Assembly (NCBI GenBank): GCA_028716665.1
Contig: JAQUPP010000001.1
Location: forward strand, 282,860 to 346,859
Source: Patescibacteria group bacterium
GTDB lineage: Bacteria; Patescibacteriota; Patescibacteriia; UBA2591; JAQUPP01
DNA length: 64,000 nucleotides
Direction: 5' to 3'
Shown: one piece after another, positions 2,833 through 63,919 of the stretch
Position numbering within the stretch: position 1 is the first letter of the stretch
Layout of the letters: the number at the start of each line of letters is the position of its first letter
Position numbers and translations under genes: made by a program
Notes under the pieces: generated by a model
Seen by the model: the letters and a program-made list of their open reading frames with translations, nothing else
Told to the model about the DNA's origin: nothing
Databases searched by the model: none

Positions 2833-3795
2833 ATGACAATTGCTTCTATCAATAATCAAAAAGAATGGGACGATTTTGTTCTCTTAAACGGAGAACAATT
2901 TTTACAATCTTGGCAATGGGGAGAATTCCAAAAAAATCTCGGCCGAAAAATTTGGCGTATGGCTGTTTACGAAGGCAATGAAATTATCGCCGCCGCTTTA
3001 ATCATAAAATATCAATTGCCATTTAATAAAAATTATTTTTATTCTCCGCGCGGGCCAATACTGAAAGAATCTGGAATATGGAATTTAGAATATGGAATAT
3101 TATTGGAAAAAATAAAAGAATTGGCTAAGCAAGAAAATGCGATTTTTTGGCGAATTGAGTCTCCAAATTCCAAATTCTATATTCCAAATTCTAAGCGGAT
3201 TTCTGATGTCCAACCGTCAAAAACAGTGATTCTGGATTTAAAAAAGACAAGTGATGAAATTTTTACCAAAATGCATTCTAAAACCAGATATAATATTCGT
3301 TTAGCCGAAAAACAAGGCGTAAAAATATATGAAAAAACAGGAGAAGGAGCGGAAGTTTTTTTAAAACTTCTTAAAGAAACTTCTCTGCGCGATCAATTCA
3401 GGGCGCACCCGGATAATTATTATTCTCATCTTTTGAATTTTAATCCGCAATTTGTCAGATTGTACGTGGCCGAATATGAAAATAAAATTTTGGCAGCCAA
3501 TTTGATGATTTTCTCTTCAAAAACGGTGACTTATCTTCACGGCGCTTCTTCAAATCTTCATCGCAATGTGATGGCACCTTATCTTTTGCATTGGTTTATT
3601 ATTCAGGAAGCTGTTAAAAACGGTTATTTTTATTATGATTTTTGGGGAATAGACGAAAAAAAATGGCCGGGTGTAACTCGTTTTAAAAAAGGATTTAACG
3701 GTGAAGAAGTTATTTATCCGGGAACTTTTGATTTACCATTTTCTAATTTTTGGTACACTATATATAGGGTCGGAAGGGTAGTAAAAAAGATATAA
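2833..3795 (+). CDS. FemAB-family peptidoglycan interpeptide-bridge aminoacyltransferase
   Basis: Length and motifs resemble FemA/FemX ('KTRYNIRLAEKQGV', 'LYVAEYENKILAANLMIFSSKTVTYLHGASS', 'RFKKGFNG'). Contains two in-frame heptamer-repeat patches: 3072-3098 'SGIWNLEYGILL' and 3163-3195 'SPNSKFYIPNSK'. Confidence 0.75.
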   Translation: MTIASINNQKEWDDFVLLNGEQFLQSWQWGEFQKNLGRKIWRMAVYEGNEIIAAALIIKYQLPFNKNYFYSPRGPILKESGIWNLEYGILLEKIKELAKQENAIFWRIESPNSKFYIPNSKRISDVQPSKTVILDLKKTSDEIFTKMHSKTRYNIRLAEKQGVKIYEKTGEGAEVFLKLLKETSLRDQFRAHPDNYYSHLLNFNPQFVRLYVAEYENKILAANLMIFSSKTVTYLHGASSNLHRNVMAPYLLHWFIIQEAVKNGYFYYDFWGIDEKKWPGVTRFKKGFNGEEVIYPGTFDLPFSNFWYTIYRVGRVVKKI

Positions 3796-5992: not shown

Positions 5993-6064
5993 GCCCAAGT
6001 AGCTCAGTGGTAGAGCAACTCCATGGTAAGGAGTAGGTCGTCGGTTCAATCCCGACCTTGGGCT
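5993..6064 (+). tRNA. tRNA-Thr (anticodon GGT)
   Basis: Cloverleaf folded by hand: acceptor gcccaag/cttgggc, anticodon arm actcc-atGGTaa-ggagt, T-arm gtcgg-ttcaatc-ccgac; no encoded CCA. Confidence 0.85.
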
Positions 6065-6069
6065 TTTTT

Positions 6070-6152
6070 GGGTGGGTAGCAAAGTAGTCAAATGCGGCAG
6101 ACTGTAAATCTGCTGGCTTCGGTCTTCGTAGGTGCAAATCCTACCCCACCCA
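6070..6152 (+). tRNA. tRNA-Tyr (anticodon GTA), long variable arm
   Basis: Acceptor gggtggg/cccaccc; anticodon arm gcaga-ctGTAaa-tctgc; class-II variable arm; T-arm gtagg-tgcaaat-cctac. Confidence 0.85.
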
Positions 6153-6156
6153 CTTT

Positions 6157-6227
6157 GCCGTCCTAGCTCAACTCCGACGTTTTAGAGTCGGAGTCCCGAC
6201 CTCCAATGGAGCGTCGGGATGGACAGG
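6157..6227 (+). pseudogene. tRNA-like remnant: the first 15 nt of tRNA-Thr(TGT), 'gccgtcctagctcaa', fused to a ~56-bp double-hairpin repeat element
   Basis: 18-nt direct repeat 'tttgccgtcctagctcaa' (6154-6171 and 6250-6267); hairpins ctccgac..gtcggag and tcccgac..gtcggga; the 3' 'ggacagg' is a degenerate acceptor strand. Confidence 0.6.
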
Positions 6228-6252
6228 AAATTTATTATGATTTAAATTTTTT

Positions 6253-6324
6253 GCCGTCCTAGCTCAATGGTAGAGCAACAGTTTTGTAAACTGTAGGTTC
6301 TCGGTCCGATCCCGAGGGACGGCT
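6253..6324 (+). tRNA. tRNA-Thr (anticodon TGT)
   Basis: Acceptor gccgtcc/ggacggc; anticodon arm acagt-ttTGTaa-actgt; T-arm ctcgg-tccgatc-ccgag. Confidence 0.85.
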
Positions 6325-6367
6325 TATAAATAATTTTTTAATTTTATTTAATTGTTAATTCAAATAT

Positions 6368-6523
6368 ATGTCTCAAGAAAATTTGATTAAATTAGAATGT
6401 ACAGAGTGCCACAAGATAAACTATTATTCTAAAAAGAATAAAAAGACAATTAAGGAACGTCTTCAATTGAAAAAATATTGCCGTTCTTGCCGAAAACACG
6501 TTTTGCACAAAGAAACGAAATAG
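6368..6523 (+). CDS. rpmG: 50S ribosomal protein L33
   Basis: 51-aa ORF '[51 protein letters not shown]' with the L33 CxxC...CxxC zinc ribbon; absent from the ORF track because it is under 60 aa; conserved rpmG-tRNATrp synteny. Confidence 0.85.
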
Positions 6524-6563
6524 TAGTTTTATTTAATGGTAAAATAAACCCCGCCAGAGCTTT

Positions 6564-6634
6564 GGGGGTGTCGTTCAATGGTAGAATAGCGGTCTCCAAA
6601 ACCGTTGATGAGGGTTCGATTCCTTCCACCCCCG
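6564..6634 (+). tRNA. tRNA-Trp (anticodon CCA)
   Basis: Acceptor gggggtg/caccccc; anticodon arm gcggt-ctCCAaa-accgt; T-arm gaggg-ttcgatt-ccttc. Confidence 0.85.
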
Positions 6635-6922
6635 TGGCATTGGCGGGTAATTATTATCGGAAATATAATTTCTTTTATTTCCGTTTTTATTTTTTCTTGA
6701 CAAATTCTGATAAAATGTTATAGTTTCAATAACTAAAACAACCCACGCAGCAAATCCGAATAAAATTTTTAAAAATAGAAAGCCATTTGCGCGGTACACG
6801 CCTTCGGCTTCATCTATTTTAAAAAATAGTTTATTAATTGATTTGTACGGGGTGCTCCAATTTGTAGCGAAATTTTTAAAAGAAAAAATTTCGAAAAATT
6901 GGGCAAAATAGGAGGTATTTTT

Positions 6923-7621
6923 ATGAAAAGAAAGGAAATTGTAGTTTTAAGTTTAGGAGGATCAATTATCCTCACTAAAGAAGGTCGGCCGGACATTCCC
7001 TTTTTAAAAAGTTTCAAGGAATTAATTGAAACTGAAATTAAAAAAGGGAAACAGTTTATTATTGTTACCGGCGGTGGATCACTTTGCCGTATTCTTAATG
7101 AAGAAATGGCAAAAGATTTCTCCGTTTCTCCGGAAAATTTGGATTGGTTGGGTATTAGCGTCACCAGAGTTAACGCTCAATTAATAAAAATTGTTTTTGG
7201 CGATTTGGTGATGCCGGAAGTAGTTACTGACCCGACAAAGAAAATTGTTTTTAACAAAAAAATTCTTTTGTCCGGCGGTTGGAAACCGGGCCGATCCACT
7301 GATTTTGTGGCGACAAAATTAGCCGAGGTTTATGAGGCAAATACGGTAATAAATCTGAGCAATACTGATTATGTTTATGACAAAGATCCGCGGAAATTTT
7401 CTGACGCTCAGCCAATTAAAAAAATTAATTGGAGCCGTTTTCGCAAGGAAATTGTTGGCACAAAATGGGTGCCGGGTTTAAATAAGCCTTTTGACCCAAT
7501 TGCCAGTAAATTGGCAGAGAAATTAGGCCTTACAGTCGCTTGTTTAAAGGGGACTGATCTCCAGAATTTAGCCAATTTTTTGGAAGGAAGACCTTTCAAC
7601 GGCACAGTAATTGAAAAATAA
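6923..7621 (+). CDS. pyrH: UMP kinase, archaeal-type (amino-acid-kinase fold)
   Basis: 'VLSLGGS', 'IIVTGGGS', 'ISVTRVNAQL', 'GGWKPGRSTDFVATKLAE', 'INLSNTDYVYDKDP', C-terminal 'GTVIE': collinear with archaeal PyrH; SD 'ggaggt' 8 nt upstream of the ATG at 6923. Confidence 0.75.
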   Translation: MKRKEIVVLSLGGSIILTKEGRPDIPFLKSFKELIETEIKKGKQFIIVTGGGSLCRILNEEMAKDFSVSPENLDWLGISVTRVNAQLIKIVFGDLVMPEVVTDPTKKIVFNKKILLSGGWKPGRSTDFVATKLAEVYEANTVINLSNTDYVYDKDPRKFSDAQPIKKINWSRFRKEIVGTKWVPGLNKPFDPIASKLAEKLGLTVACLKGTDLQNLANFLEGRPFNGTVIEK

Positions 7622-7634
7622 AAATTAAAACAAA

Positions 7635-7665
7635 AGAGGCGGTCATCAAAACCGCCTCTTTTTCT
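7635..7665 (+). terminator. Rho-independent terminator
   Basis: agaggcggt/accgcctct stem plus T6. Confidence 0.8.
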
Positions 7666-7666
7666 A

Positions 7667-7695
7667 TTGACAAAACCCAAAAAATATGCTATTAT
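7667..7695 (+). promoter_or_regulatory. Sigma70 promoter with extended -10 (TTGACA-N17-TGcTATTAT), conserved family
   Basis: ttgaca 7667-7672, 'aaaatatgc' spacer, tattat 7690-7695. Confidence 0.55.
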
Positions 7696-7733
7696 TTAAA
7701 CATAATAACCGTTCTTAAAAAAGGGAGGGGAAA

Positions 7734-8363
7734 ATGTTTAATCAGATATTACTAATAGTGAAAATAGCAGCACTAGTGGTTGTTGTGAGCTGTTGGATTG
7801 TATGTGTTGTGGCAAGGAACAACAAAAGTATAAGTTGGAAGGTCTGCATAATTGCCATAGGTACGTCGGTTGCTACTACTGTTATGATGAGTATTTTTGA
7901 GTTTAAACATGGCGATAAGGTGGGGTTTTGCTTTTTAATAGCTTGGACAGTTCTTTTTTTGTTCTTTTTTAAGATGAGTATATTAAAACTTAAAAAGATT
8001 AAAGAAGCTAATCTTATTGGATCTACTAAAACAGGTATAATTCCAAGTTTATATGAGGGAGACACTCTGACGTATAACCTTAAGGGACTTGATCTTCCGA
8101 GACAAGAGGGTGAGTCAGATTGGGAATACCGTCAACGGGTTTTCCCCGAGTTGTACTTCAAAAAGGGATTTACTGTGGCTATTTCAATGCTTATGGGTTG
8201 CAGTGTAACGGAGCTAAGTGACACAGAAAAGATGGTTCTTCTTTCCTCTATGCCCAATGAACCTGAGAACATGAATAGTCATGGGAGGAAGCAGTTTCTT
8301 TTCCAGCTTAAGAATTTCGCTCGAGGTTTTTCAGAAGACCCGCTTAAAACTCGCTCAAAATAA
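7734..8363 (+). CDS. Hypothetical membrane protein
   Basis: Three N-terminal TM helices; strong SD 'gggagggg'; no recognisable domain. Confidence 0.4.
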   Translation: MFNQILLIVKIAALVVVVSCWIVCVVARNNKSISWKVCIIAIGTSVATTVMMSIFEFKHGDKVGFCFLIAWTVLFLFFFKMSILKLKKIKEANLIGSTKTGIIPSLYEGDTLTYNLKGLDLPRQEGESDWEYRQRVFPELYFKKGFTVAISMLMGCSVTELSDTEKMVLLSSMPNEPENMNSHGRKQFLFQLKNFARGFSEDPLKTRSK

Positions 8364-41702: not shown

Positions 41703-41751
41703 ATAAGAGTAAAGTTAGTATTTTTAAGTATAAAATTGATTGTTTAAATAT

Positions 41752-44700
41752 ATGAAAAAACAAATATTTTCTTCAAAAATTATTTATTTTTCGATTTTTT
41801 TAATTTTAATTTGTTTTTCTTATTGGGGAGTAGAAAAAGTAAGGGCAGCTGATCCGCTGGACAATGATCAGATTGATATGCTGAAATATTTAGACATGAA
41901 TGAGCACGGGATTTTTAATTTAGCTACTCCGGTAGATGATGATAACGCCGCGACACAAGGATATGTTAAATCAGTAGTTTTAACAAATACTGGTTGGACG
42001 GCTACTGACAGCTATATTTATTTAACTACTATTGGTAATAGCGTCGGTATTGGAACAACAATTCCGGTCGCAAAATTGGAAGTTGCCAATAATTATAGCA
42101 GCACGGCAACGCTACCTTCGGCTAATATTGGTATAGTTGGGCGTAATTATACAGGTTCCGGCGCTGATGTTATTGGTGTCTATGGACAAGGAAAAACCAA
42201 TGACGCTTCTTATAACAGTTATGGCGGTTATTTTTATGGCACTTATAGCAGTAATAGAAATAAAGCGATTGGTATTTATGCTTATGGAAATGATTATGCG
42301 GCTATTTTGGATGGTACTGTCGGAATCGGATCATCAATACCGGCTACAAAATTAGATGTTAATGGCAATATTGCGGCGAATACCTATTATTCTCGTGGTG
42401 ATCCAATCGGTTATTTTCTTAATCCTGCCGCAGGTGGTACGGGTTGGGGATTATATTCCAATGGTTCTGTATATGCTTCTGGAAGTGATGATAATTATTT
42501 TGCCGGAAGCGTCGGAATTGGAATAACAAATCCGGGAGCAAAACTTTCAATCGTAACACCGGATACCAATTATTCAACAATATGGTCTAATAACGGTGGT
42601 GCAAATAATGAATATCTTTCTTTATATCAAACTGTTGATGATTTTATATTTACTTCCAATAAAAATGGTTCAGGAGTTCGTAAGGGTATAGGAATTACTG
42701 CCACAGGTGCGGATAATACCATGCCTAGTGGAATATATTTAAAAACAGACGGTTATGTCGGAATAGGAACAACAATTCCGGGTTTTAATCTTGATGTTTA
42801 TGGTTCAGGGGTTGTGGCATCGCAAATTGTAAGCACTAATAATTATTCAGCTCAATATATTAAAGGTGGTCAGAGCGGAGATGTACGCTGGGGATTATTT
42901 AGCGGATATCCGAATGTGGGAGATTTTACAATCAGAGAGACAGGAGTTGCTGATTATTTGACAGTCAAAAAAACTACCGGCAATGTCGGTATTGGGACGA
43001 CGATTCCAGGCATGGTATTAACAGTTAATACGAGTACTAATGATCAAGGTATTCAAATTCAAGGAGCAGCATCAAATATTAGTCCTGTACTTAAATTCGC
43101 AACTTCGGCAGGTACTGCTTATGCTCGTATTGGTATTGCGGGTGCAGCTGGTAATTTAGCTACAAACAGTGGTCAAAATGATTTAGTTATTAGAACAGAA
43201 GGTACTCAAAAACTTCATCTTGCTCCAGGAGCCGTTATTACTGAAACTTTGCTTTCTACTGGTTATGTCGGCATTGGAACAACAATCCCATCAACAAATC
43301 TTGATGTTAATGGCCAAATAAAAATCAGAGGAGGGGTACCTGGCGCTGGTAAAATTTTAATTTCGGATGCAGTTGGTTTAGCTACTTGGTCTCCTGCCAC
43401 TTCTATCAGCGATGGCGACTGGACAATTTCCGGCAATAATCAATATTCTGCTGTTTCCGGCAACGTCGGTATTGGGACAACGGATCCGACGGCAATTTTA
43501 CAAATTAATAAATCCACTGGCGGTAGTGGACAAAAATGGTTGATTCTTTCTACGACTGGAGCTTCCAGTGAAGGAATGGTTTTTAGAACTGACAATGGTG
43601 ATATTAATCGTATCACGTCTTATGGTGATTTGTATTTAGAATCCAATAATGGTTCAGGTGCTACTTTAGGACTTGATAGTGGTGGTCATTCTAGTTTTGG
43701 AGGTTATGTTTATGCACCCAGTTTGACTGTAGGTGGACTGGACATTACCCCACCGACAGAGGGAGCTATTATTTCCGGCAATGTCGGTATCGGGGTGACG
43801 GATCCAGTTAGTAAATTAGCAATTTTATCCGGAGCGGGTGTTGGCGGAATTTCAATCGGCACTGATGAAACTTATGCTGCTGTAGCTGCTCCCGACGGCG
43901 GAGCAATAATTGAAGGCAATGTCGGTATCGGTTATACAACTGCTTCTATAGATAAATTAAGAGTTAATGGTTCTATTATGTCTACGGGTCCTGCTGGTGG
44001 GAGTCCGTTGCTTACATCGGCTATTAGAATGTCAGTGGAAGGATCCGGAGCTTATGGACAAGTTCAAACTTATAATTCTGTGCCCTTAGTGTTAAACCCC
44101 ACAACTGCGGGCGGTAATGTCGGTATTGGCGTGACAAATCCGGGTAATAAATTAAGTGTTTATGGAGGCACAATAGGTGCTTATAATTTTGACGGAACCG
44201 ATGGTCTATTAATTGAAGGATATAGCGCTTCAGCTAGCGATGATGCAATGATGCAATTTCATACTTCGGGAGCGCTTTATAAAATGGGAATAGATTATTC
44301 TGATGAAGGAAAATTTAAGCTTACTTATGGTAGTGAAGATAATGGACAGACACAAATTGTAATGACTGGCTCCGGTAAGGTTGGAATTGGATTAGCAAAT
44401 CATACTCCGTTATCCAAACTGGACGTGTCGGGTAATATGGCTATTGGTTCTTATGCCGGGGCTAGCGCCGCACCTTCAAATAGTTTAATAGTTAGTGGCA
44501 ATATTGGTATTGGAACAACAGCACCGGGAATAGATTTAGCTATTGGCGATACTGATACCGGTTTAGATTGGGCGAGTGATGGTAATTTAAAAGTAATGAC
44601 TAATAATTCAGAAAGAATAAGAATCGCTTCAGATGGTAAGGTTGGAATTGGAACAACCGGGCCGGTAAATCCACTTCATATTTATTCGTCATCATCTTCT

Positions 44701-45963
44701 GTAATTCCATTGAGAGTTGACGATTATTATTATACTTATTCAATAGGAGCTGGAACTTTTTCATCGCCCAATACAAATGGATGGCAATTATACAAAGCAA
44801 GCTCGGAAACTTATTATGACAGCGTAGTGGGTGGGCATCATTTTTTGACCTCAGGATCTGAAAAAGTTACATTTACGAGTGATGGTAAGCTTGGAATCGG
44901 AACAGCTACGCCAGCAACATATTTAGACATCAAAGGAACACAAGTTGCCGGAAGCTACGGAGATGCCGCAACAGCGATAAAGATTAATATGACAAATGAT
45001 GCTTCATCAATCTATGGTGGAATTGCATGGAAGGACAGCGAAACAGCGGCCGAGACTTGCGGGATTTATCCTATGCGTTCGGGCGGAGTGAATTATTTCG
45101 ATTTTTTAAATACAGGTACAGTTTATATGAGGTTATTAGGCGGAACAGGAACAATCTTGAATGACAACAGCGCTGACTTGGATTTTCGCGTAGAAAGCAA
45201 TGATAACGCAAATATGTTTTTTGTTGATGGTGGGGCAAATACAGTAACAGTAGGATATAACGGATCACTTGGTTCTAAATTTAATGTTTATTCGGCGACA
45301 AATAACACAACACAATTTACCGGTCATCTATTGAATGTCAGAGCAGGAGATGGAACCACTAATACAATTAGTGAAATTGATTTCGGAGTAGCCAATACAG
45401 TAGCACCAGTTATTATCGGAAGTAAAGTTATAGACGGTTCCGGTGCTACAAAGGGAGATTTTTATATCGGGACAAGAGATTCGACAGATGGAGCAACGCT
45501 TCCAACAGAAAGATTAAGAGTAACAACCGCTGGCAAAGTCGGTATCGGGATAACAAATCCGGGACAAGCATTGGATGTTACTGGAACTATTCGCCAATCA
45601 GCTTGTAAAACAGCCGGTACTCTTTCCGCAAATACTTCAGGTGATATTATTTGTACATCTGATGAGCGATTGAAAAATATTTATGGATATTATCAAGGCG
45701 GACTTGCCGCGCTTTCCGCAATTAATCCGATAAAATTTTCTTATAAAGGAGAAGATTTCGTTCATGTGGGATTCTCGGCGCAGAATGTAAAAAGTGTTTT
45801 ACCTGAAGCCAGCGCCTTGCAGGATAGCGGTTATTGGAGCTTGGACGATACATCAATTACGGCATTAACTGTAAATGCCATCAAAGAACAACAAAAAGAA
45901 ATCGAAGATTTGAAAAATGTTGTCTGTCAATTAAAACCCGATGCAGATGTCTGCAATAAGTAA
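41752..45963 (+). CDS. Giant tail-fibre-like surface protein (about 1400 aa) with a C-terminal peptidase-S74 intramolecular-chaperone (autoproteolytic) domain
   Basis: Signal peptide; N-terminal 'IFNLATPVDDDNAATQGYVKS' tail-fibre-like motif; many GNVGIGTT repeats; C-terminal 'CTSDERLKNIYGY...HVGFSAQNVKSVLPEAS...ITALTVNAIKEQQKEIEDLKN' matches the endosialidase-chaperone domain. Confidence 0.75.
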   Translation: MKKQIFSSKIIYFSIFLILICFSYWGVEKVRAADPLDNDQIDMLKYLDMNEHGIFNLATPVDDDNAATQGYVKSVVLTNTGWTATDSYIYLTTIGNSVGIGTTIPVAKLEVANNYSSTATLPSANIGIVGRNYTGSGADVIGVYGQGKTNDASYNSYGGYFYGTYSSNRNKAIGIYAYGNDYAAILDGTVGIGSSIPATKLDVNGNIAANTYYSRGDPIGYFLNPAAGGTGWGLYSNGSVYASGSDDNYFAGSVGIGITNPGAKLSIVTPDTNYSTIWSNNGGANNEYLSLYQTVDDFIFTSNKNGSGVRKGIGITATGADNTMPSGIYLKTDGYVGIGTTIPGFNLDVYGSGVVASQIVSTNNYSAQYIKGGQSGDVRWGLFSGYPNVGDFTIRETGVADYLTVKKTTGNVGIGTTIPGMVLTVNTSTNDQGIQIQGAASNISPVLKFATSAGTAYARIGIAGAAGNLATNSGQNDLVIRTEGTQKLHLAPGAVITETLLSTGYVGIGTTIPSTNLDVNGQIKIRGGVPGAGKILISDAVGLATWSPATSISDGDWTISGNNQYSAVSGNVGIGTTDPTAILQINKSTGGSGQKWLILSTTGASSEGMVFRTDNGDINRITSYGDLYLESNNGSGATLGLDSGGHSSFGGYVYAPSLTVGGLDITPPTEGAIISGNVGIGVTDPVSKLAILSGAGVGGISIGTDETYAAVAAPDGGAIIEGNVGIGYTTASIDKLRVNGSIMSTGPAGGSPLLTSAIRMSVEGSGAYGQVQTYNSVPLVLNPTTAGGNVGIGVTNPGNKLSVYGGTIGAYNFDGTDGLLIEGYSASASDDAMMQFHTSGALYKMGIDYSDEGKFKLTYGSEDNGQTQIVMTGSGKVGIGLANHTPLSKLDVSGNMAIGSYAGASAAPSNSLIVSGNIGIGTTAPGIDLAIGDTDTGLDWASDGNLKVMTNNSERIRIASDGKVGIGTTGPVNPLHIYSSSSSVIPLRVDDYYYTYSIGAGTFSSPNTNGWQLYKASSETYYDSVVGGHHFLTSGSEKVTFTSDGKLGIGTATPATYLDIKGTQVAGSYGDAATAIKINMTNDASSIYGGIAWKDSETAAETCGIYPMRSGGVNYFDFLNTGTVYMRLLGGTGTILNDNSADLDFRVESNDNANMFFVDGGANTVTVGYNGSLGSKFNVYSATNNTTQFTGHLLNVRAGDGTTNTISEIDFGVANTVAPVIIGSKVIDGSGATKGDFYIGTRDSTDGATLPTERLRVTTAGKVGIGITNPGQALDVTGTIRQSACKTAGTLSANTSGDIICTSDERLKNIYGYYQGGLAALSAINPIKFSYKGEDFVHVGFSAQNVKSVLPEASALQDSGYWSLDDTSITALTVNAIKEQQKEIEDLKNVVCQLKPDADVCNK

Positions 45964-53438: not shown

Positions 53439-54032
53439 CTAATTGTATAAACTCATGGTTTTTTCTATTCCTTGTTCCAGAGCCGCAGAGATTGCTTCAA
53501 CAGTTGATTCTTCTGTTTGTTTGAGAAGTTTTTTTTCGCCGACAGAGAAATTTTTTAAAACTAAATCCATAGCTTTCTCCGACGCTTTGGTCGGAGTCCC
53601 GACCCCTTGGCGTCGGGATTGATTTTGAGCGGAGTGATTAATGCCGATTCTGAATCTGACGAAATTTTTCGTTTTTAAATTATCAATAATTGACTGAACG
53701 CCATTATGACCGGCAGACGAGCGATTTATGGAAATCCGAATTTTTCCCAATGGCAAATCCATATCATCATGAATAACCCACAGATTGGAATTTGGAATTT
53801 GGAATTTAGAATTTAGAATTTTAACCGCCAGTCCGGATTCGTTCATAAATGTGGTTGGAATAACCAAACAAACTTCGCCTTTTTTTGAGATTTCAGCTTT
53901 AAAATTTTTGTTCAATTTGAAAGTTGGAAAATCAAAAGTTTTGGCAAAATCCATTACTATTTTTTGCCCGATATTATGGCGGGTATTTTTATATTGTTCG
54001 CCCGGATTTCCCAGACCGATAATAAAAATCAT
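53439..54032 (-). CDS. pth: Peptidyl-tRNA hydrolase carrying an in-frame ~14-aa repeat-element insertion
   Basis: 'IIGLGNPGEQYKNTRHNIG', 'PTTFMNESG', 'HDDMDLPLGKIR', 'GHNGVQSI', 'RFRIGI'; insertion 'SAQNQSRRQGVGTPTKAS' encoded by the double-hairpin element (53577-53620); heptamer tandem (5 units) at 53786-53823. Confidence 0.85.
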   Translation of the reverse strand: MIFIIGLGNPGEQYKNTRHNIGQKIVMDFAKTFDFPTFKLNKNFKAEISKKGEVCLVIPTTFMNESGLAVKILNSKFQIPNSNLWVIHDDMDLPLGKIRISINRSSAGHNGVQSIIDNLKTKNFVRFRIGINHSAQNQSRRQGVGTPTKASEKAMDLVLKNFSVGEKKLLKQTEESTVEAISAALEQGIEKTMSLYN

Positions 54033-62766: not shown

Positions 62767-62824
62767 CATGTTATGACTCCGATAATGCCGTAAATTGCTC
62801 ACAAATTTTAATTATTTATTGATT

Positions 62825-63919
62825 ATGAAAATTGCCATTGATGCCCGACCGTTAACGGCAGGGGAACCGGTCGGCAAAGAAAAATTTACTATTAATGTTT
62901 TGGAGGAGTTATTTAGATTGGATAAATCTAACCAATATATTCTTTATTTAAATCAAGAATATAAGAAGCCCTTGCCGACTAATTTTTCTCCGCGAATAAT
63001 TAAAGTGCCGGATATTTTTTGGCACTTTTTTGTGTTAATTGATTTAATTTTTAAAAAGCCGAATTTATTTTTCGCGCCAATAAGCTATATTATTCCCGCT
63101 CTGAATTTCTTCGGCAAAAATATTATCGTTATTTATGATTTGTGCGTTTTTTTGCCGTTTCAGACCGGTTCGAGTTTTAAAACTAAGTTTATTGAAAAAA
63201 TGTTTTTGCGGTTTGCTATGCGAAATGCAAAAAAAATTATAACTATTTCAGAGAGCACAAAAAAAGATATTATAAAATATTTTCCGATTGCGCCGGAAAA
63301 TATATCGGTGATTTATCCGGCCGTTGCCGATAGTTTCAGGTTTATCGATGACCGTCAAAAACGTAAATCTGTCTTGGATAAATTCAGTTTGCCGGAAAAA
63401 TTTATCCTTTTTGTCGGAACATTGGAGCCGAGAAAAAATTTAGTAAGATTAATTTCAGCTTATCATAAATTGACAGATGGTTGCCCGTTGGTGATTGTCG
63501 GCAAAAAGGGATGGGATTATCAAGAGATATTTGACAAAATCAAAGAGCTGAATTTGGGGGAGAAGGTTATTTTCTTAAATTATGTTTCCAATGAAGATTT
63601 GCCATATCTATATAATGGCGCCGTTTGCTTCGTCTATCCCTCGCTTTATGAGGGTTTTGGGCTGCCGATTTTAGAAGCAATGGCTTGCGGAACACCCACT
63701 GTCACCTCGAATATATCATCCTTGCCTGAAGCAGCCGGTGAAGCGGCAATTTTGGTTGATCCTTGCAATATAGACGATATAACAAGGGATTTGAGTAAAA
63801 TTTTGACTGATGAAAATTTGCGTCAAGATTTACGAGAAAAAGGCCTTAAACAAGCTCAAAAATTTTCTTGGCAAAAAACTGCTCAAGAAGTTTTGAAAGC
63901 ACTTCAAGATATTAAATAA
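62825..63919 (+). CDS. Family-4 glycosyltransferase
   Basis: 'EGFGLPILEAMACGTPTVTSNISSLPE' GT4 signature. Confidence 0.85.
   Translation: MKIAIDARPLTAGEPVGKEKFTINVLEELFRLDKSNQYILYLNQEYKKPLPTNFSPRIIKVPDIFWHFFVLIDLIFKKPNLFFAPISYIIPALNFFGKNIIVIYDLCVFLPFQTGSSFKTKFIEKMFLRFAMRNAKKIITISESTKKDIIKYFPIAPENISVIYPAVADSFRFIDDRQKRKSVLDKFSLPEKFILFVGTLEPRKNLVRLISAYHKLTDGCPLVIVGKKGWDYQEIFDKIKELNLGEKVIFLNYVSNEDLPYLYNGAVCFVYPSLYEGFGLPILEAMACGTPTVTSNISSLPEAAGEAAILVDPCNIDDITRDLSKILTDENLRQDLREKGLKQAQKFSWQKTAQEVLKALQDIK

Follow-up and report, generated by a model that had tools for sequence, protein, structure and literature searches.

A twin-hairpin element in a truncated tRNA-Thr copy of a Patescibacteria genome and its dispersed relatives

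Introduction

Between two intact tRNA genes of a Patescibacteria group bacterium (GTDB lineage Bacteria; Patescibacteriota; Patescibacteriia; UBA2591; JAQUPP01) lies a segment, here termed X, that begins like the tRNA gene next to it and continues as a pair of hairpins, and the question it raises is what X is and how it came to stand there. The window analysed is a stretch of 64 kb (assembly GCA_028716665.1, contig JAQUPP010000001.1, positions 282,860 to 346,859, forward strand) out of a source contig of ~640 kb, and copy counts for the source genome cover this 64 kb only. An earlier note had taken X for a small mobile or recombinogenic element that had overwritten a tRNA-Gly gene in a thrU-tyrU-glyT-thrT-like cluster from which tuf was also missing. 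We find that X is a truncated 5' copy of tRNA-Thr(UGU), comprising three upstream nt and tRNA nt 1-18, and not a gene, and that it carries a twin-hairpin element, here termed E, with copies in many other genomes. With a probability of roughly 0.6, X is a dead 5' copy of tRNA-Thr(UGU) carrying E as a non-autonomous mobile or copy-and-insert DNA element, beside the intact gene that the cell uses.

Results

Segment X in the tRNA cluster

ARAGORN and Rfam agreed on four tRNAs in the cluster (window 5993-6635), and the order that the earlier note had read was confirmed by these calls and by the open reading frames (ORFs): tRNA-Thr(GGT) (5993-6064, intact, 69.9 bits with the Rfam tRNA model), tRNA-Tyr(GTA) (6070-6153, intact), X, tRNA-Thr(TGT) (6253-6324, intact), rpmG for ribosomal protein L33 (6368-6523, PF00471) and tRNA-Trp(CCA) (6563-6635), all on the forward strand. 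The spacer from tRNA-Tyr to tRNA-Thr(TGT) measures 99 nt, and neither ARAGORN nor Rfam, at E-values up to 10, assigned any RNA family to it (6154-6252). Direct reading bore out an 18-nt direct repeat, tttgccgtcctagctcaa, the left copy of which (6154-6171) consists of ttt and nt 1-15 of tRNA-Thr(TGT) and forms the truncated 5' pseudo-copy, and the right copy of which (6250-6267) is the true 5' end of the intact gene. The first 48 nt after the left repeat are E copy 1 (6172-6219), located at the D-loop position of the pseudo-copy and made up of two consecutive perfect hairpins, H1 (ctccgac-gttttaga-gtcggag, 6172-6193) and H2 (tcccgac-ctccaatggagc-gtcggga, 6194-6219), the second with an upper stem ctcc/ggag and a bulged c. 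A 30-nt tail, S (6220-6249), follows; it opens with tgg, which continues the tRNA D-loop, after which the sequence reads acaggaaatttattatgatttaaattt, the 27-nt foreign AT-rich part being ACAGGAAATTTATTATGATTTAAATTT. The string ggacagg, previously viewed as a degenerate acceptor strand, is indeed present, but it is part of the AT-rich tail and found no support as an acceptor.

The 14-mer GTCGGAGTCCCGAC occurred twice in the window against 0.05 expected and each hairpin pattern twice against 0.02-0.03 expected, and the fold z-scores of both E copies ranged from -4.2 to -5.9, whether folded as RNA or as DNA, so the E motifs are not due to chance. A sigma70-like match (TGGACA-17-TAAATT, 6220-6248) was located in S, ending 4 nt before tRNA-Thr(TGT); it is a match at the consensus level only, from a scan of 800 nt that gave 6 matches of this kind where 1.9 were expected.

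The locus in close relatives

Relatives were found through homologues of the upstream triose-phosphate isomerase (TPI) and through the exact RpmG protein, their contigs were fetched, and the loci were aligned. A second assembly of the lineage (L252, GCA_028690995.1) carried the same 96-nt insertion as the window, whereas in L121 (GCA_028717225.1, TPI 96% identical) only TTT separates tRNA-Tyr from tRNA-Thr(TGT), with no insertion, and L253 (GCA_041649955.1) showed the same clean empty site. This empty site reads CCCACCCAC joined directly to TTTGCCGTCC, with flanks 91-97% identical to the window, and the intact tRNA-Thr(TGT) is identical in the relatives with and without X. Close relatives are therefore polymorphic for the presence of X, and gain or loss of E between them is observed; that the repeats and the arms are perfect favours a recent gain. 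In L122, a relative at greater distance (62% identity), the order is Thr-Tyr-(insert)-Thr(TGT)-rpmG-Trp, likewise without tRNA-Gly. Judged from these alignments, the ancestral order of the lineage is Thr-Tyr-Thr-rpmG-Trp, never with a tRNA-Gly at this place; the proposal that X overwrote such a gene in a thrU-tyrU-glyT-thrT-like cluster thus fails, and the missing tuf is irrelevant.

The insert of L122 (5260-5760) was of a different kind: an ORF with a 23S_rRNA_IVP domain (PF05635, 5414-5659) lies between tRNA-Tyr and tRNA-Thr(TGT), and after it comes a 5' pseudo-fragment of tRNA-Thr whose D-loop holds a hairpin other than E. This fragment stops at anticodon position 35/36, where group I introns of Patescibacteria are reported to lie.

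Size, distribution and anatomy of the E family

One genome per GTDB species was scanned with the pattern CCGAC-N3-20-GTCGGAGTCCCGAC-N3-20-GTCGG, for which about one chance match was expected; the arms had to be exact, so diverged copies are under-counted. Far from being unique to two sites, E was found at no fewer than 120 loci, mostly in the candidate phyla radiation (CPR)/Patescibacteria, and the first 80 matches listed fell into CPR (63), unclassified genomes (7), Omnitrophota (6) and other groups (4). The CPR lineages concerned include Paceibacteria, Saccharibacteria, Doudna-, Berkel-, Yanofsky-, Taylor-, Nomura-, Kaiser- and Wolfebacteria, among others; several genomes held at least 3 copies, and at least two matches overall look like chance occurrences in high-GC DNA. 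No match was obtained in 2.9 million viral contigs (IMG/VR), and phage carriage was discarded as a candidate on this ground. When up to 3 mismatches were allowed, 0 copies were detected in 294 kb of CPR DNA around rnpB genes, sampled independently of E, in contrast to the two copies in the 64-kb window, which indicates a patchy distribution, as expected of mobile DNA and not of a universal functional site.

The consensus of the family is CTCCGAC-G..GTCGGAG-TCCCGAC..C-GTCGGGA, with about 30 conserved nt in a total length of 36-68 nt, and it contains two invariant 7-bp basal stems (CTCCGAC/GTCGGAG and TCCCGAC/GTCGGGA) surmounted by covarying upper stems. Conservation extended beyond the search pattern on the left (C in 123/123 and T in 108/123) and on the right (G in 116/123 and A in 102/123). 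Each hairpin has one conserved bulged base, a G at the start of loop 1 (5' side of hairpin 1) and a C at the end of loop 2 (3' side of hairpin 2), each present in 112 of the 124 copies; the first upper-stem pair was Watson-Crick in 100/113 and 98/110 copies, with C-G, T-A and A-T as alternatives, and long loops added ~3 bp to the stem compared with 0.6 bp in shuffled sequences. Hairpin 2 has the layout of the reverse complement of hairpin 1, and both strands of E thereby share one architecture.

Flank-to-flank covariation was absent at positions -3:+3 to -10:+10 across 123 copies, and E therefore ends at CTCCGAC...GTCGGGA; flank stems of at least 4 bp showed a modest excess (26 observed against about 13 expected). 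Two extended foldings were rejected for lack of covariation in the family: a conserved closing stem or three-way junction around E, for which the pairings seen in the window copies (GUCC/GGAC and AAAUC/GAUUU) are incidental, and a pairing of the 3' arm of hairpin 1 with the 5' arm of hairpin 2 extended into the loops. No clear 4-5-nt target motif emerged beyond a weak TYAG preference 5' of E, and direct repeats accompanied only 6 of the 124 copies, all in tRNA contexts and 10-28 nt long. One locus (L068) held, ~170-330 nt upstream of its position 3650 and inside coding repeats of PAEE-type units, a copy of E together with an extra single hairpin (CTCCGACCGAAAGCGTCGGAG), which suggests that single-hairpin forms of E also exist.

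E inside protein genes

The second copy of E in the window (53577-53618, forward strand) lies in-frame within pth (53439-54032, reverse strand), as the earlier note had seen; it has the same four arms with different loops, and its length is 42 nt, or 14 codons, read as SRRQGVGTPTKASE, instead of the ~45 bp given before. The window Pth has 9-13 extra residues relative to its relatives, in a variable loop, and at the DNA level this site holds one decayed hairpin in L127 and L128 and none in L129. Across the family, 41 of the 124 copies fell in long ORFs, an assignment made by open-frame length only, and 32 of these 41 had a length divisible by 3 (p = 6e-9). The divisibility, together with the occurrence of both orientations and several reading frames, indicates that E is translated and not spliced. 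Multi-copy genomes, the site polymorphism and these in-frame genic copies together uphold the earlier view of a repeated, non-autonomous double hairpin that is mobile or recombinogenic.

Three further CCGAC...GTCGG matches in the window were rejected as E copies and are ordinary coding sequence: two (43753-43787 and 43892-43925) are internal repeats of a 1407-aa repeat protein (ORF 41740-45963), and one (62845-62874) lies at the start of a glycosyltransferase-like ORF (62795-63919).

E in RNase P RNA and at terminators

Four E copies were located in rnpB (L023, L025, L045 and L118), where the sense strand aligns exactly to P13 and P14 of RF00010. Typical CPR rnpB genes run from GGTGAAACGG straight into CTAAATCC with nothing between the blocks, and the four genes have exactly E between them; with the blocks uninterrupted in a sample of rnpB genes drawn independently of E, E in rnpB is a precise insertion without duplication or tail. 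In this sample, exact E was found at 0 of 120 loci, with one diverged E-like pair. Two further copies of E sit at terminator tips (L044 and L080), the terminator scan yielding consensus matches only. E thus inserts precisely and without target duplication. The sites that tolerate it are ones where it does little harm: surface loops of proteins, in which it lies in-frame (Pth in the window), a junction at the periphery of RNase P RNA, the tips of terminators and loops within dead copies of tRNAs.

A CPR-type rnpB was seen at 49 of the 120 sampled loci (L132-L251, for example L150, L152 and L195), in which GGTGAAACGG is followed directly by CTAAATCCTTAC and which, compared with L023 (5892-6277), are without the P13/P14 of the bacterial type A specificity domain.

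The exact alignment to P13 and P14 could mean that E is the twin hairpin of RNase P RNA itself, rnpB being the master copy from which the dispersed copies escaped; about 4 of 120 matches lie in rnpB, which would amount to about one copy per genome if genomes held ~30 copies. We regard this origin as very improbable, since the independent rnpB sample, with its single diverged pair and its 49 genes devoid of any P13/P14, rules out a master copy there, and the loops differ between copies within one genome. E as the native P13/P14 of the lineage was rejected because these 49 genes have no hairpin there and exact E is absent from the 120 sampled loci. A relationship by descent between the E module and P13-P14 is a further possibility.

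Instead of being mobile DNA, E might be a structure under selection that acts in cis, at which a conserved CPR factor binds or processes RNA or DNA, with X as a regulatory leader for tRNA-Thr and rpmG. The arms of E are invariant across phyla, the upper stems covary, conservation of the arms equals that of the P4 core in four divergent RNase P RNA genes, and S has its promoter-like match just upstream of tRNA-Thr. Such a role appears rather improbable to us, as two close relatives lack X and the 294 kb of other CPR DNA lack E, unrelated ORFs hold copies in both orientations and several frames, the pth copy is decayed or absent in relatives, and no Rfam family matches.

E in tRNA remnants

The layout of X recurred elsewhere: a 5' tRNA fragment, E in its D or anticodon loop, 0-13 further tRNA bases, an unrelated spacer and then the intact gene, as seen at L115 (Ile), L065 (Lys), L072 (Arg), L111 (Pro), L094 (Ala), and L032 and L074 (Thr). 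In L073, L076, L101 and L046 the pseudo-copies are longer and hold several inserted hairpins; variants of E in tRNA pseudo-copies were found in L085 and L008, and unrelated hairpins in the same kind of pseudo-copy in L097, L058 and L122. At all 12 independent tRNA loci with exact E, the element had the orientation of the tRNA and lay in loops of truncated copies adjoining an intact gene. Deleting E (25 boundary combinations per copy) restored no tRNA in any of the 124 copies; together with the degenerate copies bearing multiple inserts, this indicates that E-bearing tRNA copies are dead.

These results bear on whether X could be a functional but unusual tRNA, whether a tRNA-Gly, one lacking the D arm or one interrupted by a short intron. 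GUCC and GGAC are able to close a three-way junction in the RNA fold of X, but only 18 nt of X are tRNA-like, X is missing in close relatives, the closing stem does not covary in the family, and no tRNA was called either intact or after deletion of E, not merely above the 29-bit gathering threshold but even at E-values up to 10. The chance of such a tRNA is negligible, the idea being refuted for practical purposes; the earlier note, too, had stated that X is not a tRNA-Gly.

The 18-nt repeat had been likened to a target-site duplication, and on that account a 78-nt unit (E plus S) would have transposed into the D-loop region of tRNA-Thr(UGU), the duplication rebuilding the 5' end of the gene. 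The perfect repeat brackets exactly E and S, the empty sites of L121 and L253 contain one copy of it, and L072 is laid out alike, its 17-nt repeat spanning -2 to nt 15 of tRNA-Arg. Against this, tRNA sequence continues for 6-13 nt past E in L115, L065 and L032, and also in L111, and for tgg in the window, which places E inside the left repeat and not between the repeats. The tails after E share neither sequence nor length between loci (17 to about 100 nt), the repeats differ in length (10 to 28 nt), no second copy of S was found in the window or in 253 fetched loci, and the rnpB insertions have neither duplication nor tail. The hairpin element probably did not create the 18-nt repeat as a simple target-site duplication, and transposition of an E-S unit is unlikely.

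Several further observations concern tRNA copies. Near full-length pseudo-copies of tRNA-Val(TAC) and tRNA-Arg(TCT), adjoining the intact genes in L073 (~2420-2760), L076 (~540-820) and L101 (~6650-6900), bear twin hairpins, E itself or similar to it, in all three of the D, anticodon and T loops. In L097, ~130-230 nt downstream of tRNA-Tyr (3434-3517), an unrelated twin hairpin (CCGCC..GGCGG and TCCCGC..GCGGGA) occupies the anticodon loop of a tRNA-Tyr pseudo-copy, from which other families with the same habit appear to exist. Partial 3' or 5' tRNA copies within 220 nt of an intact gene were frequent (254 sources, 127 tRNAs), with examples in L008 (His), L072 (Arg), L073 (Leu), L077 (Leu), L097 (Tyr and Trp) and L223 (Thr).

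Search for a mobilising enzyme

Pfam analysis of 150 E-adjacent ORFs identified no mobilising enzyme and returned the IS200-like Y1_Tnp twice. Both Y1_Tnp genes have lineage-specific hairpins of their own at their flanks instead of E, as do their homologues beside rnpB in five E-free loci, and an association of E with a REP-associated tyrosine transposase (RAYT, REP denoting repetitive extragenic palindromic sequences) was rejected, these genes being linked to rnpB and not to E. The window contains no Y1_Tnp, and the loci that do contain one are all flanked by other hairpins (L025:7418-7918, L068:3650-4348, L142:1314-2006, L150:~860-1300, L168:1616-2245, L198:6999-7667 and L221:353-1021); the hairpin flanking the L068 gene is GTGGGACGTnnnACGTCCCAC.

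In six CPR loci an IS200-like Y1_Tnp (PF01797) lies within about 150 nt of rnpB, each with hairpins of its own, and Y1_Tnp beside rnpB in CPR is apparently a conserved RAYT/REP-like system separate from E.

Neighbouring genes

Between tRNA-Trp and dnaJ, the window (6899-8363) has an AA_kinase-like ORF (6899-7621) and a 209-aa membrane-like ORF (7734-8363), in place of which the relative with 96% TPI identity has a single 116-aa ORF (L121:5856-6206); gene content thus differs despite high identity.

Discussion

On its best reading, E moves at the DNA level and resembles REP/REPIN sequences and Rickettsia palindromic elements (RPEs). The conserved stem bases and the bulges would be recognition features of a trans-acting enzyme that works on folded single-stranded DNA, by analogy with the HUH/Y1 transposases acting on REP and IS200/IS605 ends or with the integron integrase (IntI) acting on attC. 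tRNA-shaped DNA would be a preferred target, hit in one orientation only, and a hit in a single-copy tRNA gene would survive only if an intact copy adjoined it, so that a broken copy with E would always be met next to an intact one. The intact copy may have come to the rescue with its own promoter-like flank by illegitimate or homology-facilitated recombination, and S may be such an imported upstream flank of a tRNA gene, its promoter match being one at the consensus level. Alternatively, in two steps, a partial duplication may have come first and E may then have hit the dead copy. Rescue and two-step origin both appear likelier than a target-site duplication, given the E insertions without duplication elsewhere, the tRNA sequence past E and the unrelated tails.

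Several points weigh against a dead tRNA copy that gained a mobile E. A deletion between the 18-nt repeats in the branch of L121 and L253 would give the same picture as a gain; no intermediate, that is, a duplication without E, was seen among five related assemblies; no donor of S was found in the window or the 253 fetched loci; and the search of E-adjacent ORFs yielded no mobilising enzyme. Identical arms across very distant phyla are, moreover, unusual for REP-type elements and could reflect a selected function or frequent horizontal spread. As a tentative and rather doubtful extension, E could be the substrate of an enzyme horizontally shared among CPR phyla that inserts twin hairpins precisely and without duplication into loops of folded single-stranded DNA (D, anticodon and T loops of tRNAs, terminator tips and the P12/P15 junction of rnpB). 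Hits of this enzyme on tRNA genes present once would time and again force the birth or acquisition of replacement tRNAs, and a fragment beside an intact gene, as in X, would be the scar.

Among known systems, the REP sequences of proteobacteria, with their composite forms BIME and REPIN and the transposase RAYT (TnpA-REP), share with E the short imperfect palindromes, the conserved stem with bulged bases, the inverted doublets, the many copies per genome and the non-autonomous nature. They differ in being extragenic, whereas a third of E copies are intragenic and translated; in being lineage-specific and co-evolving with their RAYT, whereas the E arms are identical across phyla; and in having a cognate RAYT, whereas the Y1_Tnp genes of CPR loci have other hairpins at their flanks. 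The density of E is also low and patchy by comparison. RPEs are palindromic selfish DNA reportedly described by Ogata et al. in 2000 as lying in-frame in protein genes and also in structural RNA genes. E likewise is a palindromic repeat found in-frame in ORFs (pth and the ORF statistics) and in an RNA gene (rnpB); by their description, RPEs are set apart by a length of 100-150 bp and confinement to Rickettsia, compared with 36-68 nt and many CPR phyla for E, and the association with truncated tRNA copies is a feature of E and not a known one of RPEs. The inserts of RPEs are tolerated as extra surface peptide segments.

The ends of IS200/IS605 elements, their miniature derivatives (PATEs) and integron attC sites resemble E in insertion without target-site duplication and, on the mechanism proposed for E, in the recognition of folded single-stranded hairpins whose extrahelical bases define the strand, and attC additionally in a variable centre between conserved stem bases. 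E differs from them in having no linked transposase or integrase and no clear target motif, and it is much shorter than the left and right ends (LE + RE) of an IS608-type element. Classical miniature inverted-repeat transposable elements (MITEs) have a target-site duplication of fixed length, unlike E in rnpB. Integrative elements that use tRNA genes as att sites leave part of the gene as a direct repeat beside the intact tRNA, as in X, and have breakpoints in the D and anticodon loops, as at the tRNA loci with E; the 'island' of X, however, is 78 nt without an integrase, and its duplicate is a 5' fragment immediately upstream, whereas in the classic case a 3' part lies at the far end of a kb-scale island. 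Intervening sequences have been described from rRNA, and group I introns from the tRNA genes of Patescibacteria (bioRxiv 10.1101/2025.07.03.662931). These too are insertions into hairpin loops of structural RNAs, and in L032 and L074 E sits at anticodon position 35/36, the reported intron position; group I introns, though, exceed 200 nt, have a P1-P9 fold and leave an intact tRNA once removed, whereas E, at 48 nt, matches no Rfam intron, leaves no tRNA after its removal and sits in truncated or degenerate copies that always adjoin an intact one. Hairpins, pseudogenes and duplications are not mentioned in that preprint. A literature search retrieved no paper with the E 14-mer and none that pairs Patescibacteria with palindromic elements, REPIN or RAYT. 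We found no earlier description of the E family, which belongs with the miniature palindromic repeat elements and departs from both REP/REPIN and RPE on defining features.

CPR/Patescibacteria genomes are tiny and considered streamlined and repeat-poor, and the E family, which has entered proteins, RNase P RNA and tRNA loci, shows that they do carry active intragenomic parasites. Some oddities of annotation are explained by it, such as extra peptide segments, tRNA-like fragments and unexpectedly long spacers in tRNA clusters, and it provides a strain-level marker. If the mobilising activity acts on folded single-stranded DNA and is so strict about sequence, its mechanism would be of interest, and possibly its use in technology. 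The recurring broken tRNA copy with a hairpin beside an intact tRNA makes it possible to test whether mobile DNA drives the turnover of tRNA genes in organisms with one copy of each tRNA.

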